Virus record (IMG/VR): IMGVR_UViG_3300049926_000090
Span: 1-43,977 of that record
Source of the DNA: a virus
Lineage: Duplodnaviria; Caudoviricetes
DNA: 43,977 nt
Reading direction: 5' to 3' (one strand)
Shown here: one piece after another, positions 5,569 through 24,674 of the stretch
Numbering within the stretch: position 1 is the first letter of the stretch
Layout: every line of letters begins with the position of its first letter
The notes under the pieces: generated by a model
The model's database searches: none
What the model was told of the DNA's origin: nothing
What the model saw: only the letters and a program-made list of their open reading frames with translations
Position numbers and translations under genes: made by a program

Positions 5569-5592
5569 CTTGTCTCCTATTCCTTGAAGGGC

Positions 5593-10764: not shown

Positions 10765-12350
10765 CAGTCCTCGTCCCTCCCCATCCCGTCGATCCTCTTG
10801 GCGACGGTGACCGGGAGCAGCCAGCGTAGGAGGGCATAGGCGCAGTCGCGTTCCTCGCCGAAGCGACCTTCGCCGGCGCGGGCTTCTTCGCGCTCCTCGA
10901 GCATCCGCTGCCCCCAAGCCCGCTCGGACTCCGCCTCATTGACGACCTCGGCAGCGCCCTCGACGATCGCCTGCTTGTACTCCTCGGGGACCTCGAGGCG
11001 CTCCGGCTCATGGGCGGCCTGTCCGTCGCGCGAGGGCCAGTCCCGCGGGAAGGTCGGCCGGATGCCGTAGTCCTCGAGCAGCGTGTCGAGCGCGTCCGCG
11101 GGGAAGGGCCTGTCGACGTCCTGGCCGGCGGTGATCGCCGCCATCGCGACCCGCTGGACCCACTGGTCGTCTCGGCCGTAGGGGATCACGACGCGGCGGG
11201 TGCCGGGGTCGCCCTGGCGGCTCTCGAAGCCACCGAGACCGCGGCCGTCCTGGTCCTCGAGCTCGACGAAGAACTCGCTGGGATCGTCGGAGGCGTAGTT
11301 GGCGGCGAGGACGATATGCAGCTCGCGGGTGCCAGGAGGCACATTGCCGGCCGGCCGGGGGTCGTCGGTGAAGAGCTGTCGGCCGGCGTGCTCGACGAAG
11401 CGCATCTGGCTGATCCGCTCCCGCTGCAGGTCGATCGTGTCGCGGAGCTCGCGGAAGAGCCGGTCGATCCGGCCGGCGAAGGTCGAGGCCTGCGGCGCGT
11501 CGAGCCGGTCGAGTGCCTCGCCGACCGCGCTGATCGCTTCCTGGGCGTCCGCCTCGCGCCCCTCATCCACCCTCTTGATGTCCACCACGAGGGCATCGGC
11601 TCCCCGCGCCATCGCCTCGTCGTCGATCGTCGACCGCAGGAGAGCCGACTCGATCGCGTCGGTGAACTCCTGGACTTCGGTGGCGGAGAGGACGTTCTGG
11701 GAAAGCAGCGCGTCGAAGATCAACCGGCGCCGCGTGCCCTGCGCGGGGTGCGTGCCCTGCCAGCCATCCGGGATCGCCTCGATCGCGCGGTCGGCCTCGG
11801 CGGCCATCCGCTCGTCGCGGCGGCGCCGGATCTCTATACCCCGGACGCACTGCTCGTCGTGGATCTGGCTCTTCGGGTCCGTGCAGGAGCAGGGCGGCAG
11901 GTCGTCCTTGTAGAGCTGGCGGGCGTTCCTGGCTTCGCTCTTGGGCCGATTCGCCTCGACCTCCTCGCCGAGCTGCCGCAGCGCCACCGGGGTCCACTCG
12001 CGATCGGTCTGCCGCGCCCACCCCCGTCGAAGATCGAAGTCGCTGTAGAGCGCGAGGCTGCCCTTCTGGTCGCGAAGGACCCAGTAGTTCGGCGGGACGG
12101 ACAGCCCCGCGCCGATCCTCGAGTCGAGGTAGCTGATCGTGATCCCTCTCTGGGGTGGCTTGGCCGGACCGACCGTCTCGCCGGGTCGAAGGAAGCCGAT
12201 CGGGAAGTCGGTGCCGCCCATCCAGCGGACGGCCTCGCGCGTCTCCGGCTTCTCGCCCTCCTCGAGAACCTCGCCGGCCCGGATGAACCAGCCAGGGATC
12301 CAGTCGGGGATCTTCGTCGACTCCTGGCCGGGCTGGTTCTGATCGCTCAC
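10764..12350 (-). CDS. Large multi-domain hypothetical protein
   Basis: About 528 aa from GTG 12350 with GAGGAG RBS. Patchwork of segments, including CSC..H..C and coiled regions. Confidence 0.7.
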   Translation of the reverse strand: MSDQNQPGQESTKIPDWIPGWFIRAGEVLEEGEKPETREAVRWMGGTDFPIGFLRPGETVGPAKPPQRGITISYLDSRIGAGLSVPPNYWVLRDQKGSLALYSDFDLRRGWARQTDREWTPVALRQLGEEVEANRPKSEARNARQLYKDDLPPCSCTDPKSQIHDEQCVRGIEIRRRRDERMAAEADRAIEAIPDGWQGTHPAQGTRRRLIFDALLSQNVLSATEVQEFTDAIESALLRSTIDDEAMARGADALVVDIKRVDEGREADAQEAISAVGEALDRLDAPQASTFAGRIDRLFRELRDTIDLQRERISQMRFVEHAGRQLFTDDPRPAGNVPPGTRELHIVLAANYASDDPSEFFVELEDQDGRGLGGFESRQGDPGTRRVVIPYGRDDQWVQRVAMAAITAGQDVDRPFPADALDTLLEDYGIRPTFPRDWPSRDGQAAHEPERLEVPEEYKQAIVEGAAEVVNEAESERAWGQRMLEEREEARAGEGRFGEERDCAYALLRWLLPVTVAKRIDGMGRDED

Positions 12351-12462
12351 TGGGGTCTCCTCGTTCGCTGGATTGAAGGTCGTCCCGGCCCCCAGCACCG
12401 CATCCTGCTCGTCACTCCTGGGGATCGGGACGGGGCGAACCTAGCTGACCGAGCGGCGGAAT

Positions 12463-12800
12463 GTGTACACAAGGCCGCTATTTAGGTGAATTCTTGTAGA
12501 GCAGGACGGCCATATATATATCCGCGCGACCGCCGGCATCGGCACTCCCCTCCCCCCCTGGGTGGCCGCCTGGTCGAGGGTAGAGGCTTCGCGGCTTCAG
12601 GCGTCGATCATCACTGCGCTCAGACGTAGTGCCGAGGGAGGACAGACGTGGAACCGAATGGGGGTTGTCATTCCCTGGGGTATGTCAAGGCAGGGCAGCT
12701 ACCCACCTCGCGCGCGTTTGACAGTCGCGCGCGTCCACCTCGCGGGCCGTCTCTCCTCAAACCCGCACGATGTACGAGCTCTCGTACATGTGTCCACTGC
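12463..12800. other. Non-coding strand-switch region; candidate physical genome end/packaging site and early control region
   Basis: ATATATATAT run, CCCCTCCCCCCC tract, GTGTACAC palindrome (12463-12470), ATGTACGAG-CT-CTCGTACAT inverted repeat (12770-12789). Divergent transcription starts here. Confidence 0.45.
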
Positions 12801-12867
12801 CCTTCAGTCCCAACCCCCGATGCACGATGATCCGTACATGAACGAGGCACCTACCGAAGGAGATTCC

Positions 12868-13017
12868 ATGCAGACCCAGACCAGCAACGTGATCCGCCCC
12901 TTGGAGTGGTGGCAGGCGATTGAGATGGCGACCGCTCGCCAGCTCTCGGAGATGCGCTCGGCCGAGATCCGCAAGCGCATCGACCGCAGCGTCGCCACGC
13001 TGAGGGCAGTTCGATGA
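12868..13017 (+). CDS. Small early protein (49 aa)
   Basis: MQTQTSNVIRPLEWWQAIE..., with ACCGAAGGAG RBS. Confidence 0.65.
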   Translation: MQTQTSNVIRPLEWWQAIEMATARQLSEMRSAEIRKRIDRSVATLRAVR

Positions 13018-13349
13018 GCGTCGAGCAAGAATCAGCCGAGGCGATCCGCGATCACCTAGCCGAGCACGGCAGGACCGAGAGGCCGAGCATGACCGAGGAA
13101 CTACACCGGATGGTCAGCCAGGAGGCCCGCAAGCAAAACGGCTGGGAGGTTCTCGGCATCGACTCCACGTCGGGGACTGACGGGGTGATCCGCTTCCACC
13201 GCCCCAACGCTCCTAGCGGCTGTCATTACGGCACCGCTCACTTCTCTACGGATGGCAAGGCCGTCGTTGCCTTCGAGTGGGGGCACTACGACCTCAGCTA
13301 CCGGGGAGGCCGGGAAGACTTCTCGACCCGGGTAGCGCAGGGCCGCTAG
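13014..13349 (+). CDS. Hypothetical early protein
   Basis: 111 aa, ATGA coupling. C-terminal FEWGHYDL motif. Confidence 0.7.
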   Translation: MSVEQESAEAIRDHLAEHGRTERPSMTEELHRMVSQEARKQNGWEVLGIDSTSGTDGVIRFHRPNAPSGCHYGTAHFSTDGKAVVAFEWGHYDLSYRGGREDFSTRVAQGR

Positions 13350-13397
13350 CGCGTCTGGGGTTGGCCGGGTTCGATTCCCGGCCGCGCTCTGTATCCA
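13348..13397 (+). ncRNA. Minimal tRNA-like (T-arm/elbow) element 1
   Basis: AGCGC-gtctggggtt-GGCCGGG-TTCGATT-CCCGGCC-GCGCT-ctgtatcca. Confidence 0.7.
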
Positions 13398-13427
13398 TGA
13401 ACGCAGCACAACCGAAGGAGATGCACC

Positions 13428-14054
13428 ATGCAGACCGCCAAACACAACGGCGTGCCGGGTTGCCCGCGCGTCGAGGTTCTATCCATCGACTATGACAAGG
13501 CAGCCGTGCGCTCGGACGAAGCCGAGCCGGGGTTCGCCCTGGACATCGTCCCCGTCTCGGAGCTCTCGTCATTCGAGGAGGGGCGCGCCGCTGAGCCCGA
13601 GGTCGGCGACGCGGCCACAGAAGTCGACGCGAAGATGCGAGGGAGGCTTGACGACCTGCACACCCTGCAACGGCTGGCAAACCCCGGTGTCGACCTCGAC
13701 GAGTGGTCGAACGACGAGCTGCTCGCCCTGGACATCGGCTACGGCGAGCCTGGCCCGCTGAGCCGTGAGTACGTCGAAGAGGCGGCCCAGGAGCGGCTCG
13801 ACGAGTATCCGCTCTGTGTCGCGACCCGGACGGTGTTTGAAATCGTGCTCGGCACGGGTGGTCCCGATGATCGGCTGATCGTCGAGTGCGACGTGTCCAC
13901 TGATCCGGAGCGCGAGCTTCAGCCGCAATACAGGGTTCGCCGCATCCTCTACCGCTACTCGTGGACGGGCTCGGCCGAGCGGGAGCTGTACGGCGAGGAC
14001 CGGGAGACGGCCGAAGGGTTCGCGCGGCGCGTTGTGGCGGAGCTGGTCGAATGA
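13428..14054 (+). CDS. Acidic early protein (possible DNA-mimic/anti-defence)
   Basis: 208 aa, very D/E-rich, with EYPLCV...IVLGTGGP motif. Strong RBS. Confidence 0.7.
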   Translation: MQTAKHNGVPGCPRVEVLSIDYDKAAVRSDEAEPGFALDIVPVSELSSFEEGRAAEPEVGDAATEVDAKMRGRLDDLHTLQRLANPGVDLDEWSNDELLALDIGYGEPGPLSREYVEEAAQERLDEYPLCVATRTVFEIVLGTGGPDDRLIVECDVSTDPERELQPQYRVRRILYRYSWTGSAERELYGEDRETAEGFARRVVAELVE

Positions 14055-14380
14055 ACGACCCGACGATGTGCCCCAATTGCGGGCGGACCTACGAGGACCT
14101 GACCGAAGATCGGCACACTGAGAGCGGCTGCTTTCTGGGGATGCTGATCGGGGTCCTTGAAGATCGCGACGTTGCGGTCACTCACGATTCGGTCGCCGCT
14201 GCCGTGATCGACATAGACGGCCTCTGGGACCGCTACGGCGGCCCGGCTGCCGACGACCTGGAAAGGATGCTCGGCAAACACGAGCACCGGCCAGCCGAGG
14301 GCTCTCGTAACCGCGTCACGGCCGAGACGGTCGTGTTCCGCTGTCACGACTGCGGCGAGTTCTACAGCGTCGCGGAATAG
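14051..14380 (+). CDS. Zn-finger hypothetical protein
   Basis: MNDPTMCPNCG...H...C and C-terminal H...CHDCG. ATGA coupling. Confidence 0.7.
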   Translation: MNDPTMCPNCGRTYEDLTEDRHTESGCFLGMLIGVLEDRDVAVTHDSVAAAVIDIDGLWDRYGGPAADDLERMLGKHEHRPAEGSRNRVTAETVVFRCHDCGEFYSVAE

Positions 14381-14381
14381 C

Positions 14382-14435
14382 CAGGGGCGCTTGGAGCTTC
14401 GGCGGGGTTCGATTCCCCGCCGCCCTCTGCATCCA
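14382..14435 (+). ncRNA. Minimal tRNA-like (T-arm/elbow) element 2
   Basis: GGGGC-gcttggagcttc-GGCGGGG-TTCGATT-CCCCGCC-GCCCT-ctgcatcca. Covaries with element 1. Confidence 0.7.
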
Positions 14436-14459
14436 ACCAGCAACCGAAGGGAAGGCACC

Positions 14460-14759
14460 ATGAGCGGACACCTAGACCACAAGATCGAGGTCACTGCAGC
14501 GACGCCGGAGAACATGCGCCGGTTCGAGGAGATGGCAGGACCGCCCCGGACGATCGACACGCCGGACGGCCCCGCAATCGTCGAGCCGACGCGCTGTTTG
14601 GCAATGGACCCGGCGACCGGCGACACGTTCAGCGCATCGGCGGGCGACTACTACAACCAGCCCGACGACGAGCCGCTGACCAACGATGAAGGCGACCCGC
14701 TGATTCTGGTCTTGAAGCGGACGCTCTACGTCGACGCGCTGACCGGGGAGCAGATCTAA
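14460..14759 (+). CDS. Acidic hypothetical early protein
   Basis: MSGHLDHKIEV...TGDTFSASAGDYY...PLILV, with CAACCGAAGGGA RBS. Confidence 0.7.
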   Translation: MSGHLDHKIEVTAATPENMRRFEEMAGPPRTIDTPDGPAIVEPTRCLAMDPATGDTFSASAGDYYNQPDDEPLTNDEGDPLILVLKRTLYVDALTGEQI

Positions 14760-15181
14760 TGAGGCGCGGCGAAGAGACGCTTGCCCGTATCCGAAAGGCG
14801 ACCGGGTACGACCCCGAAGGCGAGGGGAGTGTTGACAACCTGATCGCCTATAAGGACGCGCTAGAGGATCGGCTCTTGGGCCTGATCCCCGACGACAGGG
14901 AGCCGAACGTCGAGGAACTCGCCGTAGAGATCCTCAAGGCGCACGATCTGCCCGCCGAGCTACAGAACACTGGCGGCGGTTGCATGGTCGCTGAGGTCAA
15001 GGGCGAGCACGGCGTCTATGCCTGGGTGACGGAAACCGAGATCGACAACGACGGCGAGCCGTTCTCTGTCGGCCTGTACGCGCAGTGGGAAGACGAACCG
15101 GAGCTGATCCGGTGTACGGCCGCGCAGCTCCCCGACGTGGTGAGCAGCGGCCTAGCCGAGCTAGAGAAGGTCGCCGAGTGA
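14759..15181 (+). CDS. Acidic hypothetical early protein
   Basis: 140 aa, TAATG coupling, contains NTGGGCM motif. Confidence 0.7.
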   Translation: MRRGEETLARIRKATGYDPEGEGSVDNLIAYKDALEDRLLGLIPDDREPNVEELAVEILKAHDLPAELQNTGGGCMVAEVKGEHGVYAWVTETEIDNDGEPFSVGLYAQWEDEPELIRCTAAQLPDVVSSGLAELEKVAE

Positions 15182-15597
15182 CCCGGGCGAAGCTGGGAAG
15201 CGCTGGGGCGGTGTGTGTCGTCGCCCTGGCGCTTGCCGCACCGGCAAGAGCAGCACCCTTCACCCCGGCGCTTGAGCGCGCTGCGGCGGCCGCTGATCGC
15301 TACTGGGGGACGCCGAGCAACTGCACTTCGCTGGACCGCCAGATCGTCCCTGACGGTTCGCTGCCCGGCGGCGCTGACGCCATCGCCACCTACGCCGACG
15401 CGCCGACACCTTGCGTCCTGTACGTCGAGCGTTCGCTCGCTCGCCCCTCTCAGTGGGTGCGGGCCTGCGGCGTGCTGGTCCACGAGGGAGGCCACCTACG
15501 CGGCCTCGATCACGACTTCGGCGGCGTCATGGCGATCGACTCACTGCCACCGCCGCTCTGCTTCCGGGCCGGCGCCCGCGAGCTCAACCGGCGCTGA
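15178..15597 (+). CDS. Secreted metzincin (matrixin/M10-like) metalloprotease
   Basis: GTG start coupled to the upstream stop. Signal peptide ending A-R-A. HEGGHLRGLDH matches HExxHxxGxxH and is followed by a Met-turn (GVM). Confidence 0.75.
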   Translation: MTRAKLGSAGAVCVVALALAAPARAAPFTPALERAAAAADRYWGTPSNCTSLDRQIVPDGSLPGGADAIATYADAPTPCVLYVERSLARPSQWVRACGVLVHEGGHLRGLDHDFGGVMAIDSLPPPLCFRAGARELNRR

Positions 15598-15958
15598 CGA
15601 GACAGCTATGAAGCCGGGGGCTTCCGTCTCCGGCGCTCGCGCTGTCGATGGCGAGACGCCGTCTCCCGCGCTTGCGCAGACGGGACACCCCGGCTATCCG
15701 AAGGTGAGAAAGGTGTTGAGCATCGCGTTACGCGCCGGGCCTCGGATCTGCTGAGCCTTTGGCAGCAGCTTCTCCCGCTTGCGCCACCCACCACACGACA
15801 CACACTTATCGGTCGGGTTTGCCGAGGAGAGCCACGGCCTCACCTTGCAGCCCTTCGCCTTGCAACGGCGGGCCGGGAGTTCGCGGTGCATCGGGCAACA
15901 CTCCATGCCGGCGAACCTACCATCTAGTCCGGCCGGCCGGATTGGGACGAGACAGCTA
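15596..15958. repeat. 13-bp direct repeat GACGAGACAGCTA (15596-15608 and 15946-15958)
   Basis: Exact repeat flanking the small Zn-finger gene. Confidence 0.6.
15694..15906 (-). CDS. Small Cys-rich basic protein
   Basis: C-x4-C...CVSC Zn-binding pattern. The exact start is uncertain. Confidence 0.5.
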   Translation of the reverse strand: MECCPMHRELPARRCKAKGCKVRPWLSSANPTDKCVSCGGWRKREKLLPKAQQIRGPARNAMLNTFLTFG

Positions 15959-16047
15959 CAAACGAATAGCCGATTGACGCCGAGCCCGAAACGAGGGAGG
16001 CTCTGCCGGTCGGGCCGTCAACTGCACTTACGAGAGACACAGGGGAG

Positions 16048-16141
16048 GGGCGGCAGTCGGACTCGAACCGACGTCTCCACGTTGAGGCCAATAACCATTT
16101 GGTCGACGCCTCCGGGGTGAGCTGCATTGCTCCATACCGCC
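16048..16141 (-). ncRNA. tRNA-like RNA with expanded anticodon arm (non-canonical or pseudo-tRNA)
   Basis: Acceptor GGCGGTA/TGCCGCC, D arm GAGC-AATGCA-GCTC, T arm GTCGG-TTCGAGT-CCGAC. The anticodon stem CCCCG/CGTGG encloses 31 nt instead of 7. No encoded CCA. Confidence 0.7.
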
Positions 16142-16426
16142 ACGGTCAGGTCTTTCGCCGGGGCGCCGTCGTGCGGGCCCGCGCCCCCAGCAAGGGCGGT
16201 CCGCAATGAGCGCTCATTCTCAGTCGGTCGTTTGGTCCGCTGGCCGTGACCGGCCGCAGCCCCAGCAAAAGGTGAGAAGACTCCCGCCGCCTTGAGTGCC
16301 GCCAGGGAACGGCGGCGGCGGGCGCGGAGGAGTTCCGCTTTACCTCGTGCCCCAAGGGGACGCCGGACTCACCGGGCTCTTGGCTTGGCCCCCGATATGT
16401 GGGGGGCCTGCGCACGGGCACGGCAA

Positions 16427-16872: not shown

Positions 16873-17426
16873 CCGTCGACTTCCTCGAGCGCGATCTGGT
16901 TCGGGTCGACGGCCTCGGCCTCGGCATCGGACTTCGGCCGTTTCATACACCCGCACTCCTCGCACTCGGTGAGAGGCACCCTCTTGGCCGGCACCTTCTT
17001 GCCGTACTTCTCTCGCAACGCCGAGCGCGACAGCGACTCGCAGTCGGCGAGCGCGTCGGCCAGGTCGACCTCGCCCTTGCGAAGCGCCGGCAACACGACA
17101 GCGAGCTTGGTGGCCTCGAGCTCGGCGAGAACCTCGGGCTCGACCTCCCTCTTGACGACGAGCTCCTCGTAGGACTCGATCAGCGCATAGACCTGGCTGC
17201 GGCCGAGCCCGATCTCCGGTGTCCCGAGCCATTCCTCGAATTTGTCGTGGCCCAGGTGCTCCCACATTTTCGCACCATAGAACTCGTGCAAGAAGCCGGC
17301 GAGGGCGATCCATACCTGCCGGATCGCCCCCACCCCCTTCTTGATTTTCTCCTCAGTGGCATACGCCTTTTTGGCGGCGCGCTCCTCGGGAGTCGAGGTC
17401 TTGCGTTTGGCGACCGACTTCCCCAC
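16869..17426 (-). CDS. Hypothetical DNA-binding protein with C-terminal CxxC
   Basis: 185 aa, W..LGHDKFEEWL..PEIGLGRSQVYALI helical motif common in phage replication regions, plus CEECG. Confidence 0.7.
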   Translation of the reverse strand: MGKSVAKRKTSTPEERAAKKAYATEEKIKKGVGAIRQVWIALAGFLHEFYGAKMWEHLGHDKFEEWLGTPEIGLGRSQVYALIESYEELVVKREVEPEVLAELEATKLAVVLPALRKGEVDLADALADCESLSRSALREKYGKKVPAKRVPLTECEECGCMKRPKSDAEAEAVDPNQIALEEVDG

Positions 17427-17429
17427 GGG

Positions 17430-17927
17430 CTAGAAGGGAATGTCGTCGTCGTCGCCGCTAGCACCCTCGGCCGCCGGCTCCTCCCCGGGAGAGGAGATCC
17501 CGTCGACGGTGCCGACGACTTCGTTGACGTAGGTGTTGCGGTACTTCTTCTCGCCCTTGTCCGTGGTGACGACGCGGATCGACACCCGTGTCGTGCCCGC
17601 CAGGGGCTCGAGGGCCTCGGCCAGTTCGGCGAGGTTGACACCTTGGAGCCCGAGCATCTCGAGGTATCCCTTGGTCCAGGCGATCCGGTCGGGGTCCTCG
17701 AGCTCGTGCCACACGCTCGGGGCGGAGAGGCCGTCGAACTCGCCGCCGTCCTGCACGCTGATCTCGGTTATCAGCTTGAGCGGCCCGCCCCCCTCCTTTT
17801 CCCAGAAATCGAAGCGCTCGATCTGGCCCTCGTAGTCCCCATCGGGGACACCGCCGCCAGACGTTTTTGCCTCGGCGTCATCGTACTCGTCTTGCATATT
17901 CGCGAGCCGCTCTGCGTGGTCGGTCAT
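17430..17927 (-). CDS. Single-stranded DNA-binding protein (DUF669-like OB fold)
   Basis: VPDGDYEGQI start of OB fold, acidic C-terminal tail DDDDIPF, adjacent to the Sak4-like ATPase. Confidence 0.75.
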   Translation of the reverse strand: MTDHAERLANMQDEYDDAEAKTSGGGVPDGDYEGQIERFDFWEKEGGGPLKLITEISVQDGGEFDGLSAPSVWHELEDPDRIAWTKGYLEMLGLQGVNLAELAEALEPLAGTTRVSIRVVTTDKGEKKYRNTYVNEVVGTVDGISSPGEEPAAEGASGDDDDIPF

Positions 17928-18703
17928 TTGGATTTTTCTCCTTTTTTGGACTCAGCTTTTGCTTTTGCCGGGGGTTTGGCCGGCGGCTTGGTTGCCGGGA
18001 ACGACACCGCCATCGCCTTGCGGAGCTCGCCGGCCTCGAGCGGCAGTGGGTCGGGCAACGGCTTGGCACCCTCGGGGATGCGGCCGCCGGCCTCGTGGTG
18101 CTCCGCCCCTTCGGTCCGCAGCACTCGCGTGTCGGACTCCTCCTCATCGCCCTCCCAGGTGGCGAGGAAGATGAAGTCGACGAAGCCGGTCAAGAACTTG
18201 CGGGCCTGACCGGAGAGCGTGGGCTGGGTGACGGTCTTCGTCCCCACCTTCTTTTTGACCTCGCGGTCCTCGGCGTGGGAGACGAACCACACCCCGAGCT
18301 CGAGGCTGGCAAGTTTGCCGACGCGCAGGCGGAACTCGTCGGCGACCGCGGCCCACCCCTTGCCATAGTCGAGGTCGGAGGGGTGCTTGCAGCCGAGCTC
18401 GGTGCAGACGGCGTCGGAGCACATCCGGTAGAGCTCGTCGACGGTGTCGATCACGACGACCTCGAAGCGGCCGGGGTCCTTCGCCAGGTCGGCGCCGATC
18501 TCGCGGAACTCGGCCCAGCTCCGACAAGGCATTTCGAATACGTCGAGCGAGCCGAGGCCCGGTTCGGTCGCGATGAAGAGCGTGTGCTCCGGATTGATCT
18601 TGGAAGCGAACGTGCTCTTGCCGATCTTCGGCGGCCCGTAGAGCAGGGCCTTGATCCTGGCCGGCGAGAGCGCGGGTGCTGATTTCTCGGTGGGGAGTGT
18701 CAT
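17924..18703 (-). CDS. AAA_24 / Sak4-like ATPase (recombinase)
   Basis: LLYGPPKIGKST Walker A, VVVIDTVDE Walker B, YGKGW and SHA motifs. Confidence 0.85.
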   Translation of the reverse strand: MTLPTEKSAPALSPARIKALLYGPPKIGKSTFASKINPEHTLFIATEPGLGSLDVFEMPCRSWAEFREIGADLAKDPGRFEVVVIDTVDELYRMCSDAVCTELGCKHPSDLDYGKGWAAVADEFRLRVGKLASLELGVWFVSHAEDREVKKKVGTKTVTQPTLSGQARKFLTGFVDFIFLATWEGDEEESDTRVLRTEGAEHHEAGGRIPEGAKPLPDPLPLEAGELRKAMAVSFPATKPPAKPPAKAKAESKKGEKSK

Positions 18704-23393: not shown

Positions 23394-23633
23394 TTAGACC
23401 ACCCCCGGCGAGCCTTTGCCGCCGGCGAGCGAGCCGGGGTTCGCGTTGTTGACCGGCATCCCGATCGCGATGTAGCAGGCCGTGCATACGACGCTCTCAC
23501 CGTCCCAGGTGCCGTCTTCACACATGCCGTCACCTTCGGGGTCCATACCCGACGACCGGGTCGGTTGGCCGTGCTCGCAACCCTTCGCCTCCTTCACCCG
23601 GCAGTTGATCGTCTCGCCCTCGGGGATGCTCAT
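23394..23633 (-). CDS. Small Cys-rich protein
   Basis: C..C...CTACY, ATGA-coupled to the recombinase. Confidence 0.6.
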   Translation of the reverse strand: MSIPEGETINCRVKEAKGCEHGQPTRSSGMDPEGDGMCEDGTWDGESVVCTACYIAIGMPVNNANPGSLAGGKGSPGVV

Positions 23634-24223
23634 GAGAGCAACTCGTCGGCGAGCCCGAAGGTGGGGTTCTCGTCGAGGTTGCCGGCGTCCTTGAAGTAGA
23701 TCATCGTCGTCGCCGGATCCGCGTGGCCGACGGCGAGCTGCACCCGATGCAGCGGCGCCCCGTCCTGCAGCGCCAGGGTGACGAAGCTGCGGCGCAGCGA
23801 GTGCGGCGAGATCTCCGGGTTGATCCCCGACCAGTCGGCCAGGTGTTTGACGCGCTCATAGGCCGTCTGCCGGGAGATCCCGGCCAGGGGGTCCAGCACT
23901 GCCCCGGAGGCGTGCAGACGCGGCAGGAGAGGCCCCTCGAGCCGTCCTGCGAGGAACTCGTCGACCGCAAGGCACACGGCCGGCGCCAGGGGGACGACGC
24001 CGCGCTTGCGGCCCTTGCGGACGACGCGGAGGGTGCGGTGGCCGCCCGAGCTGCCCAGGTCGGGGACGGTGGCTGCCACTGCCTCGGAGACGCGCAGGCC
24101 GTTGAGTCCGAGTAGGGAGACGAGTAGGAAATCGCGGGGGTTGGCGTCGCGGGCGGCGAGCAGCAGCTTGCGCAGTTCACCACGATCTGCCCACGGGGTC
24201 GTGAGGTCGGATCGGTTGCTCAT
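23630..24223 (-). CDS. Tyrosine recombinase (catalytic domain only, 197 aa)
   Basis: GLRVSE (R), RKG (K), HSLRR (HxxR), GH (H) and MIY (Y) are all present. GAAGGAGG RBS. Confidence 0.9.
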   Translation of the reverse strand: MSNRSDLTTPWADRGELRKLLLAARDANPRDFLLVSLLGLNGLRVSEAVAATVPDLGSSGGHRTLRVVRKGRKRGVVPLAPAVCLAVDEFLAGRLEGPLLPRLHASGAVLDPLAGISRQTAYERVKHLADWSGINPEISPHSLRRSFVTLALQDGAPLHRVQLAVGHADPATTMIYFKDAGNLDENPTFGLADELLS

Positions 24224-24275: not shown

Positions 24276-24327
24276 AGACTACCACCACGTGTACACAGAT
24301 CGGGTAAGGTGCGCGATCCAGCAACCG
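24276..24327. promoter_or_regulatory. Divergent promoter region centred on GTGTACAC palindrome
   Basis: GTGTACAC at 24289-24296, with TAAGGT 8 nt to the right (+) and TAGTCT 7 nt to the left (-). Confidence 0.55.
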
Positions 24328-24338
24328 AAGGAGTGAAG

Positions 24339-24674
24339 ATGTCAGACGTAATCACCGAGGCCCGGACCCTCCTACAGCGCCGGCTTCACGAGGTCGACCA
24401 CGAGAAGCTCCGCCTCGAGCGGGCAATGGGTGCCCTCGGGAGCGACCGCAATGGAACGGCACCGGCACGTGCAAAGCGAGGTCGGCCCCGGAAACGTCAG
24501 CCCGGCGGCCGCGCCAAGCAGGCCCTCAACCTGATCGCCGAGAGACCGGGGATCACCGCCTCGGAGATCGCCGGGGTGATGAAGATCAAGCCGAACTACC
24601 TGTACCGGGTGCTCGGCGACCTCGAGAAGCAGAAAAGGGTGAAGAAGAAAGGCCGCACCTACACCGCCGCCTAG
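24339..24674 (+). CDS. Coiled-coil + AT-hook + winged-HTH DNA-binding protein
   Basis: MSDVITEARTLLQRRL..., KRGRPRK, QALNLIAERPGITASEIAGVMKIKPNYLYRVL. CAACCGAAGGAG RBS. Confidence 0.8.
   Translation: MSDVITEARTLLQRRLHEVDHEKLRLERAMGALGSDRNGTAPARAKRGRPRKRQPGGRAKQALNLIAERPGITASEIAGVMKIKPNYLYRVLGDLEKQKRVKKKGRTYTAA

Follow-up and report, generated by a model that had tools for sequence, protein, structure and literature searches.

A conserved tRNA top-half mimic between stop codons and ribosome-binding sites of actinobacterial phages, a candidate signal for host RNase P and RNase Z

The early message of phage T7 is cut by host RNase III at intergenic hairpins, and the tRNA-like domain of tmRNA is built from an acceptor stem, a stemless D loop carrying GG and a T arm. 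The closest known counterparts of the phage RNA motif considered here are the t-elements of plant mitochondria, which the available text of Forner et al. 2007 (PMC1920247) describes as tRNA-like folds with the T-arm motif GGTTCRANYCC that are embedded in long transcripts, have been proposed to direct RNase P and RNase Z in cis, and coincide with mapped mRNA ends. At nad6 and ccmC, according to the same text, the mRNA 3' ends at t-elements lie within the reading frame, before the stop codon, and these are a precedent for transcript ends inside a reading frame; it also describes the punctuation of the polycistron of animal mitochondria by tRNAs (PMC1920247). A Haloferax t-element that flanks crRNAs and is cut by RNase P and RNase Z to release them is described in the available part of PMC6546412, and mascRNA/menRNA is named as an RNase P substrate in that of PMC4919913. 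As for the enzyme itself, the accessible portions of PMC11143913 describe RNase P as gauging a distance of 12 bp from the T-loop and as cutting model hairpins that consist of an acceptor stem and T arm alone; according to those of PMC4919913, the D loop of a substrate is dispensable and the T-loop is needed.

The window, by which we mean the whole stretch of DNA that was analysed, is a complete virus record of 43,977 bases and contains two copies of an element that a sequence-only reading had interpreted as a minimal tRNA mimic (Table 1). Both copies share with t-elements the T-arm motif GGTTCRANYCC in a hairpin and an acceptor-like stem stacked on the T stem, but the phage motif is a compact, repeated unit of 41-47 nt with a T stem of 6-7 bp that lies before ribosome-binding sites; t-elements, as there described, are organellar, few per genome and have mapped ends, whereas the ends of the phage motif are predicted from sequence. 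The Haloferax t-element is prokaryotic like the phage motif, but in the part of its source at hand it is archaeal and an engineered tool, and the two are likened by description. A reduced tRNA-like RNA is also what mascRNA/menRNA (RF01684) is, but in a vertebrate lncRNA context and with a 7+5 split in its consensus line; RF01684 is the only Rfam model that touches copy 1 (24.1 bits, E 1.2, against a gathering threshold of 42.5), and the copy in Mycobacterium phage Rockstar reaches 26.5 bits, again under 42.5. With the tmRNA domain the phage motif shares the acceptor stem, the stemless GG loop and the T arm, but it is without the conserved G3-U70 (G-U at pair 3 in 1 of 32 aligned rows), the CCA and the tag frame. 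Compared with a canonical tRNA (RF00005), it has a linker of 10-12 nt and neither D stem nor anticodon arm. ARAGORN calls no tRNA or tmRNA and Rfam no tRNA at either element, and no Rfam model reaches gathering level at any copy. The T7 marks would be alike in pairing a host nuclease with a structured intergenic site, but they are long double-stranded hairpins cut by a different enzyme, and animal mitochondria use complete tRNAs where the phage motif is a top half.

Across the record the majority of genes lie on the minus strand, and the matches obtained include terminase, portal and major head proteins, a DnaB-like helicase, Sak4-like and RusA-like proteins, an endolysin and a tyrosine integrase. 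The row of seven small ORFs around the elements, which we take to form a single operon, presumably an early one, has neither a PHROG family nor a Pfam match over the cut-off for any member, and a scan of 12350-16400 for sigma-70-type promoters found none. The 208-aa protein encoded between the two copies, used below as an anchor, belongs to a set of 116 database proteins including itself, falls in viral hypothetical clusters and is without a match in PHROG and Pfam searches. One protein of this set is named from a Solirubrobacterales bacterium, and three of the five genome loci with a relative of the anchor protein are labelled Solirubrobacterales; because of these matches, the host of the phage is probably an actinobacterium of this order. 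The translation of the last ORF of the operon (15178-15597, plus strand) shows an HExxHxxGxxH motif and a hydrophobic N terminus, which suggests an exported zinc protease; Pfam and PHROG searches with it gave no match. Adjoining the integrase is a lone winged-helix-like ORF (24315-24674, plus strand), possibly a repressor, which is preceded by a ribosome-binding context like that of the element tails and has no mimic upstream.

Table 1. Features of the small-gene run and the two elements in the window
Feature	Position	Strand	Basis or remark
Seven small ORFs in a row	12868..15597	+	amid mostly minus-strand genome
ORF upstream of copy 1, 111 aa, family not found	13014..13349	+	
TAG stop of ORF 13014-13349, shared with the start of the copy 1 helix	13347..13349	+	
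tRNA top-half mimic, copy 1	13348..13388	+	sequence; covariance model R1
Copy 1 unpaired tail, spacer and ribosome-binding site before ATG 13428	13389..13427	+	repeat D20
Anchor ORF, downstream of copy 1, 208 aa	13428..14054	+	virus-associated family, function not assigned
ORF upstream of copy 2, 109 aa, cysteine motifs	14051..14380	+	zinc-finger-like Pfam matches, sub-threshold only
tRNA top-half mimic, copy 2	14384..14426	+	sequence; covariance model R1
Copy 2 tail, spacer and ribosome-binding site before ATG 14460	14427..14459	+	
ORF downstream of copy 2, 99 aa, family not found	14460..14759	+	

Copy 1 consists of a 5-bp outer stem (13348-13352 with 13384-13388), a 10-nt linker that contains CTGG (13353-13362), a 7-bp T stem (13363-13369 with 13377-13383) closed by the T-loop TTCGATT (13370-13376), and a tail (13389-13397). 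Copy 2 has an outer stem of 5 bp with a terminal G-U pair (14384-14388 with 14422-14426), a 12-nt linker containing TTGG, a T stem of 7 bp (14401-14407 with 14415-14421), its T-loop at 14408-14414 and its tail at 14427-14435. The 5-bp outer stems, GG linkers, 7-bp stems, TTCGATT T-loop and tails of the sequence-only reading are thus borne out, and its assignment of stems and loops stands, but the helix of copy 2 begins at 14384 and not at 14382. That the elements start at or just after a stop codon is right for copy 2, whose helix starts 3 nt past TAG 14378-14380; copy 1 starts inside its TAG. The tails, said to end just before the next ribosome-binding site, in fact stop about 11-16 nt short of it. 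The shared tail CTG(T/C)ATCCA is present in both copies but proved to be lineage-specific, and the CCA inside it is not a tRNA CCA, as CCA at positions 74-76 occurs in none of 36 copies from the window's phage group.

Exact matches to GGTTCGATTCC in the window are copies 1 and 2 only, and the full descriptor finds two sites there against a mean of 0.003 and a maximum of one in 300 Markov-background windows. Under covariance model R1 the copies score 60.8 bits (copy 1) and 63.3 bits (copy 2), each being a member of the training set, and a covariance model including both copies finds no third copy in the window (next best E 0.73). Folding-energy z-scores of -0.9 and -1.7 lend weak support; the pairing probability of the T stem is 0.99-1.0 in copy 2, and in copy 1 a competing fold is better by 0.4 kcal/mol and the T stem has a probability of about 17%. 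The case rests on the comparison of relatives. Read-through of the stop codon into the next gene was considered and rejected: at copy 1 it would meet a TGA in frame within the tail, and copy 2 does not keep the frame.

Relatives were fetched through the neighbouring protein, with no use of the RNA: an alignment of 81 of the 116 anchor-family proteins retrieved 29 loci, about 23 of them distinct once duplicates were removed, whereas the single anchor protein as query retrieved none. By a descriptor scan, in which hairpins with a T stem shorter than 6 bp were removed before counting, the element is present in 17 of the 29 loci (12 distinct contigs), in one to three copies each and always on the coding strand; it is absent by the same scan from the other 12, of which three are shorter than 1.3 kb. 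Of the 24 protein-anchored copies, two of which are the window's own, none lacks the outer stem or the YGG of the linker, the outer stem of the L120 copy at 5581 being degenerate, and the helices total 11 bp in 8, 12 bp in 13 and 13 bp in 3. The linker GG is conserved in all 24; invariant partners such as this GG and the T-loop cannot show covariation. The ortholog of copy 1 in L073/L131, before the same gene, has altered stems that are nevertheless paired. In a non-circular check, a search that specified only the 5' half and the T-loop gave 31 loci, and all nine tested unspecified 3' positions were paired in 18 of 27 distinct matches, the misses including two ordinary tRNAs.

Alignment A3 comprises 32 copies chosen out of 45 descriptor hits, partly for pairing, and therefore its pairing statistics lean to structure: 95.5% of its cells are paired, versus 68.6% in shuffled and 48-57% in slid controls, and both sides vary in 9 of 12 pairs, where the counts are of sequences and not of independent events. 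Unprompted, RNAalifold recovered 4+7 pairs from it. The outermost pair is broken in 11 of the 32 rows, and hence most copies have a helix of 11 or 12 bp; over the window's phage group, the total is 11, 12 and 13 bp in 10, 20 and 6 copies, respectively (n = 36). G-U pairs are present on the sense strand, the linker GG starts mostly 9-10 nt from the first paired base (36 group and 33 cultured-phage copies), and inspection found no consistent covariation in a leader-tail pairing. The model built from A3 matches 23 of 25 related virus records, most of which are the sources of training rows.

The claim of tRNA top-half mimicry is upheld by the covariation, the kept T-loop and linker GG, and the helix of 11-13 bp (mode 12). 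The arithmetic of 5+7=12 bp survives as a total of 11-13 bp with a mode of 12 and fails as a fixed split, as 4+7, 5+6 and 6+6 exist. Judged by comparative sequence evidence, the two window elements belong to a real, conserved phage RNA motif. The strict consensus of the two copies matched 0 viral contigs; a scan forcing TGG and CTCTG gave 102 loci, many of them ordinary tRNAs, and is a lead only; and similar folds in lower-GC viral contigs come from scans that forced part of the motif. A repeat of the host chromosome was not found, with the pattern in 1 of 401 genomes of the likely host order and the model in 1 of 61 (101 candidates scored per genome), and both matches sit on the anchor-carrying contig.

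The A3 model also finds the motif, independently of training, in cultured phages of Gordonia, Streptomyces, Mycobacterium and Arthrobacter, at 1 to about 14 copies per genome, and such arrays were absent from the sequence-only reading. There are 11 matches at E <= 0.5 within 23 kb in Gordonia phage Cafasso (nine full-length, E <= 0.003), 16 within 18 kb in Gordonia phage VanLee (14 at E <= 0.0013), 10 on the plus strand of Streptomyces phage phiScoe10 (eight at E <= 0.024), and one each in Mycobacterium phage Rockstar and Arthrobacter phage Pitbull. These copies sit amid small hypothetical genes in the same sense as the next gene, two of the matches overlap short annotated ORFs, and the records annotate no RNA feature at the copies. 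The helix totals 11, 12 and 13 bp in 11, 18 and 4 copies (n = 33); here and in the 36 copies of the window's group, T stem and outer stem are split as 7+4, 7+5, 6+5 or 6+6 while the total stays at 11-13 bp. In the cultured phages CCA at 74-76 occurs in 0 of 33 copies and A73-C74 alone in 27, and the tails start with AC. After many copies in Cafasso, VanLee and phiScoe10 (L199, L201 and L202), a second small hairpin and a conserved C/A-rich spacer precede the ribosome-binding site. Ro proteins bind tRNA-mimicking Y RNAs, and VanLee (L201) has a gene annotated 'Ro-like RNA binding protein' at 16896-18058, about 5 kb from its array of mimics.

Several other tRNA-like folds are present in these genomes. 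A second tRNA-like RNA lies on the minus strand of the window at 16048-16141, with a 7-bp acceptor, a D-like hairpin, a T arm and a long variable arm that replaces the anticodon arm (Rfam tRNA 37.9 bits, no ARAGORN call); its counterparts are convergent with the operon in L108, L117, L120, L122, L123, L125, L126 and L137. Tandem, closely spaced T-arm hairpins without an ARAGORN call occur in L043, L044, L045, L059 and L067, and a longer T-arm element, in which about 100 nt separate the acceptor strands, is found in L001 (about 500-612) and L092 upstream of a small gene with a product that by eye resembles CsrA. In L118 (1576-1671) and L136 (6541-6636) there is a tRNA-Glu-like gene that ARAGORN could not assign and that has an additional GC-rich hairpin in the region of the D-loop. 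In phiC31 (L204, NC_001978.3), an unannotated tRNA-like fold at 13424-13516, before gene 14, has a D arm and an altered anticodon arm, and the tail and ribosome-binding site after it resemble the ones that follow the mini elements; the fold may be an extended relative of the motif.

Most copies in the window's phage group begin inside the upstream stop codon, a point missing from the sequence-only reading. The helix starts at the second or third base of that codon in 20 of the 24 protein-anchored copies, 17 directly and three via a GC repeat that gives an equal register; the other four are copy 2 of the window, a single copy in L109, another in L122, and the degenerate one in L120. The overlapped stops are TAG in 18 cases and TGA in two, with the pairing partner base varying accordingly, and TAA versions of the overlap are seen in L140 and L145. 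Clustering the 43 scored upstream proteins on their last 70 residues gives 37 groups, and therefore many unrelated genes end at this register; the base before the stop is C in 19 of 20 overlapping copies versus 15 of 35 window genes. The overlap is lineage-specific, since only 1 of 39 cultured-phage matches overlaps a stop, and 26 of the 39 lie 3-15 nt after one. It could be simple compaction.

We lean, with modest confidence, towards the interpretation that the elements act in cis to direct host RNase P and RNase Z to the polycistronic message, which would be split into units of one to three genes. The linker GG would dock on the T-loop to form the elbow. A first cut, by RNase P where the helix starts on its 5' side, would give the downstream message a 5' end stabilised by base pairing and would leave the 3' end of the upstream message unprotected; RNase Z may next cut after base 73 and free a mini-RNA of 41-45 nt. 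A constant total length combined with a sliding junction is what an RNase P length ruler would select, and the distance from T-loop to predicted cut is about 12 bp (11-13 bp in 36/36 group and 33/33 cultured-phage copies scored, one more hairpin having no outer stem). Searches of the five anchor-relative genomes gave matches over the cut-off in four for RNase Z and in four for type A RNase P RNA. Against processing, CCA at 74-76 is found in 0 of 69 copies, which deprives bacterial RNase P of its RCCA anchor; helices of 11 bp make up about a third of the copies; and the thermodynamic model does not favour the T stem in copy 1.

For most copies in the window's phage group, RNase P would be predicted to cut within the stop codon of the gene upstream. 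As the helix begins there, such a cut would strip the upstream message of its stop, with U, UA or UG as its last bases. In animal mitochondria, A-tailing restores stops. A stop-registered punctuation code, which strikes us as doubtful, would have RNase P cut inside the UAG or UGA; the upstream message would then either be silenced gene by gene through stalling and tmRNA tagging or have its stop re-added through A-tailing, and a ribosome terminating on the codon would melt the outer stem and block the cut. If this were true, message cutting would depend on the state of translation. A cut in the stop codon of 20 of 24 copies would be costly unless purposeful, and this may argue for RNase Z only or for no cut.

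An element that is never cut could be a platform that binds an elbow-reading factor of host or phage, such as the ribosome or an RNA-binding protein, or that bars exonucleases, and so couples termination to the initiation or stability of the next gene. We regard such a platform as unlikely. In its favour, the element is placed without exception after a stop codon and ahead of the following ribosome-binding site, with the ATG 47-67 nt past the T-loop, the stop overlap would be harmless if nothing is cut, the copies have no CCA, and the Ro-like gene of VanLee is about 5 kb from the array. Yet a Ro-like gene was not identified in the window, and a length of 11-13 bp with a sliding junction is needed by enzymes that measure to an end and not by a plain barrier. 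If half-tRNAs of 41-45 nt are instead released to act in trans, as decoys for tRNA-binding defences or by titrating host tRNA enzymes, then up to about 14 copies per genome and a phiScoe10 array that spans a gene annotated as an Ocr-like antirestriction protein would fit. Anticodon nucleases target the anticodon loop, however, which these RNAs do not have, and so strict a position ahead of ribosome-binding sites, with a single element per gene block, suits action in cis better than a dedicated RNA gene; the decoy function appears improbable. The chances are slimmer still that transcription of the operon is stepped down at the elements by leaky intrinsic termination or pausing of the actinobacterial, U-tract-poor kind. 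A GC-rich hairpin right behind a stop codon with a short pyrimidine tail would suit such a site; but a terminator requires neither T-loop, linker GG nor split outer stem, cultured-phage tails begin with AC and are not U-rich, and 0 sites were called in 12350-16400, although U-poor terminators lie outside what that scan excludes. The early terminators of phiC31, which have no U tract, were considered as relatives and rejected, the intergenic phiC31 hairpins being plain and unmatched by the model, with no intergenic full-length match below E 0.3.

Other explanations place the function in the DNA. Repeats at cassette boundaries, through which recombination captures or shuffles small genes, have parallels in integron attC sites and T4-type PeSL cassettes, and could account for 37 unrelated clusters among 43 upstream proteins that mostly end in the same register and for the frequent C before overlapped stops noted above; genes for a short tyrosine recombinase and a Sak4-like annealing protein are present in the phage. 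But stems that have diverged with pairing kept offer less homology for recombination, the T-loop and GG are RNA tertiary features, and the G-U pairs stand on the sense strand, so we give cassette boundaries as small a chance as terminators; gene shuffling could be a side effect of the elements. An identity as attP sites, or as what is left of the 3' ends of host tRNAs, has next to no probability. A T arm with an acceptor 3' strand does look like a tRNA 3' end, and a tyrosine integrase is encoded at 23630-24223, but this is about 9 kb from the elements, the copies inside one genome differ, and the 5' strand covaries with the 3' strand. The sequence-only reading had itself raised attP as the alternative to compare with host tRNAs, and in 61 genomes of the likely host order there is no exact match: the best for copy 1 is a tRNA-Cys with 2 mismatches in 24 nt, in 2 of the 61, and for copy 2 two non-tRNA sites with 3 mismatches.

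The motif is apparently uncatalogued so far. A literature search by titles and abstract openings, with most subscription journals outside its scope, did not find it described; the tRNA-like candidates in the available part of PMC10690425 overlap ARAGORN tRNAs, and such repeats are not mentioned in the accessible text of PMC5311408. If the elements are processing signals for RNase P and RNase Z, a direct test would be possible with Cafasso and VanLee in Gordonia rubripertincta, Rockstar in Mycobacterium smegmatis and phiScoe10 in Streptomyces coelicolor, and the phages would provide dozens of natural minimal substrates of RNase P and RNase Z with an unusually long T stem. A repeat that has been left unannotated in deposited genomes of cultured actinobacterial phages would then have a function. 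A widespread group of phages would be steering the essential tRNA-processing nucleases of the host to shape phage mRNA, a practice described till now mainly in organelles.
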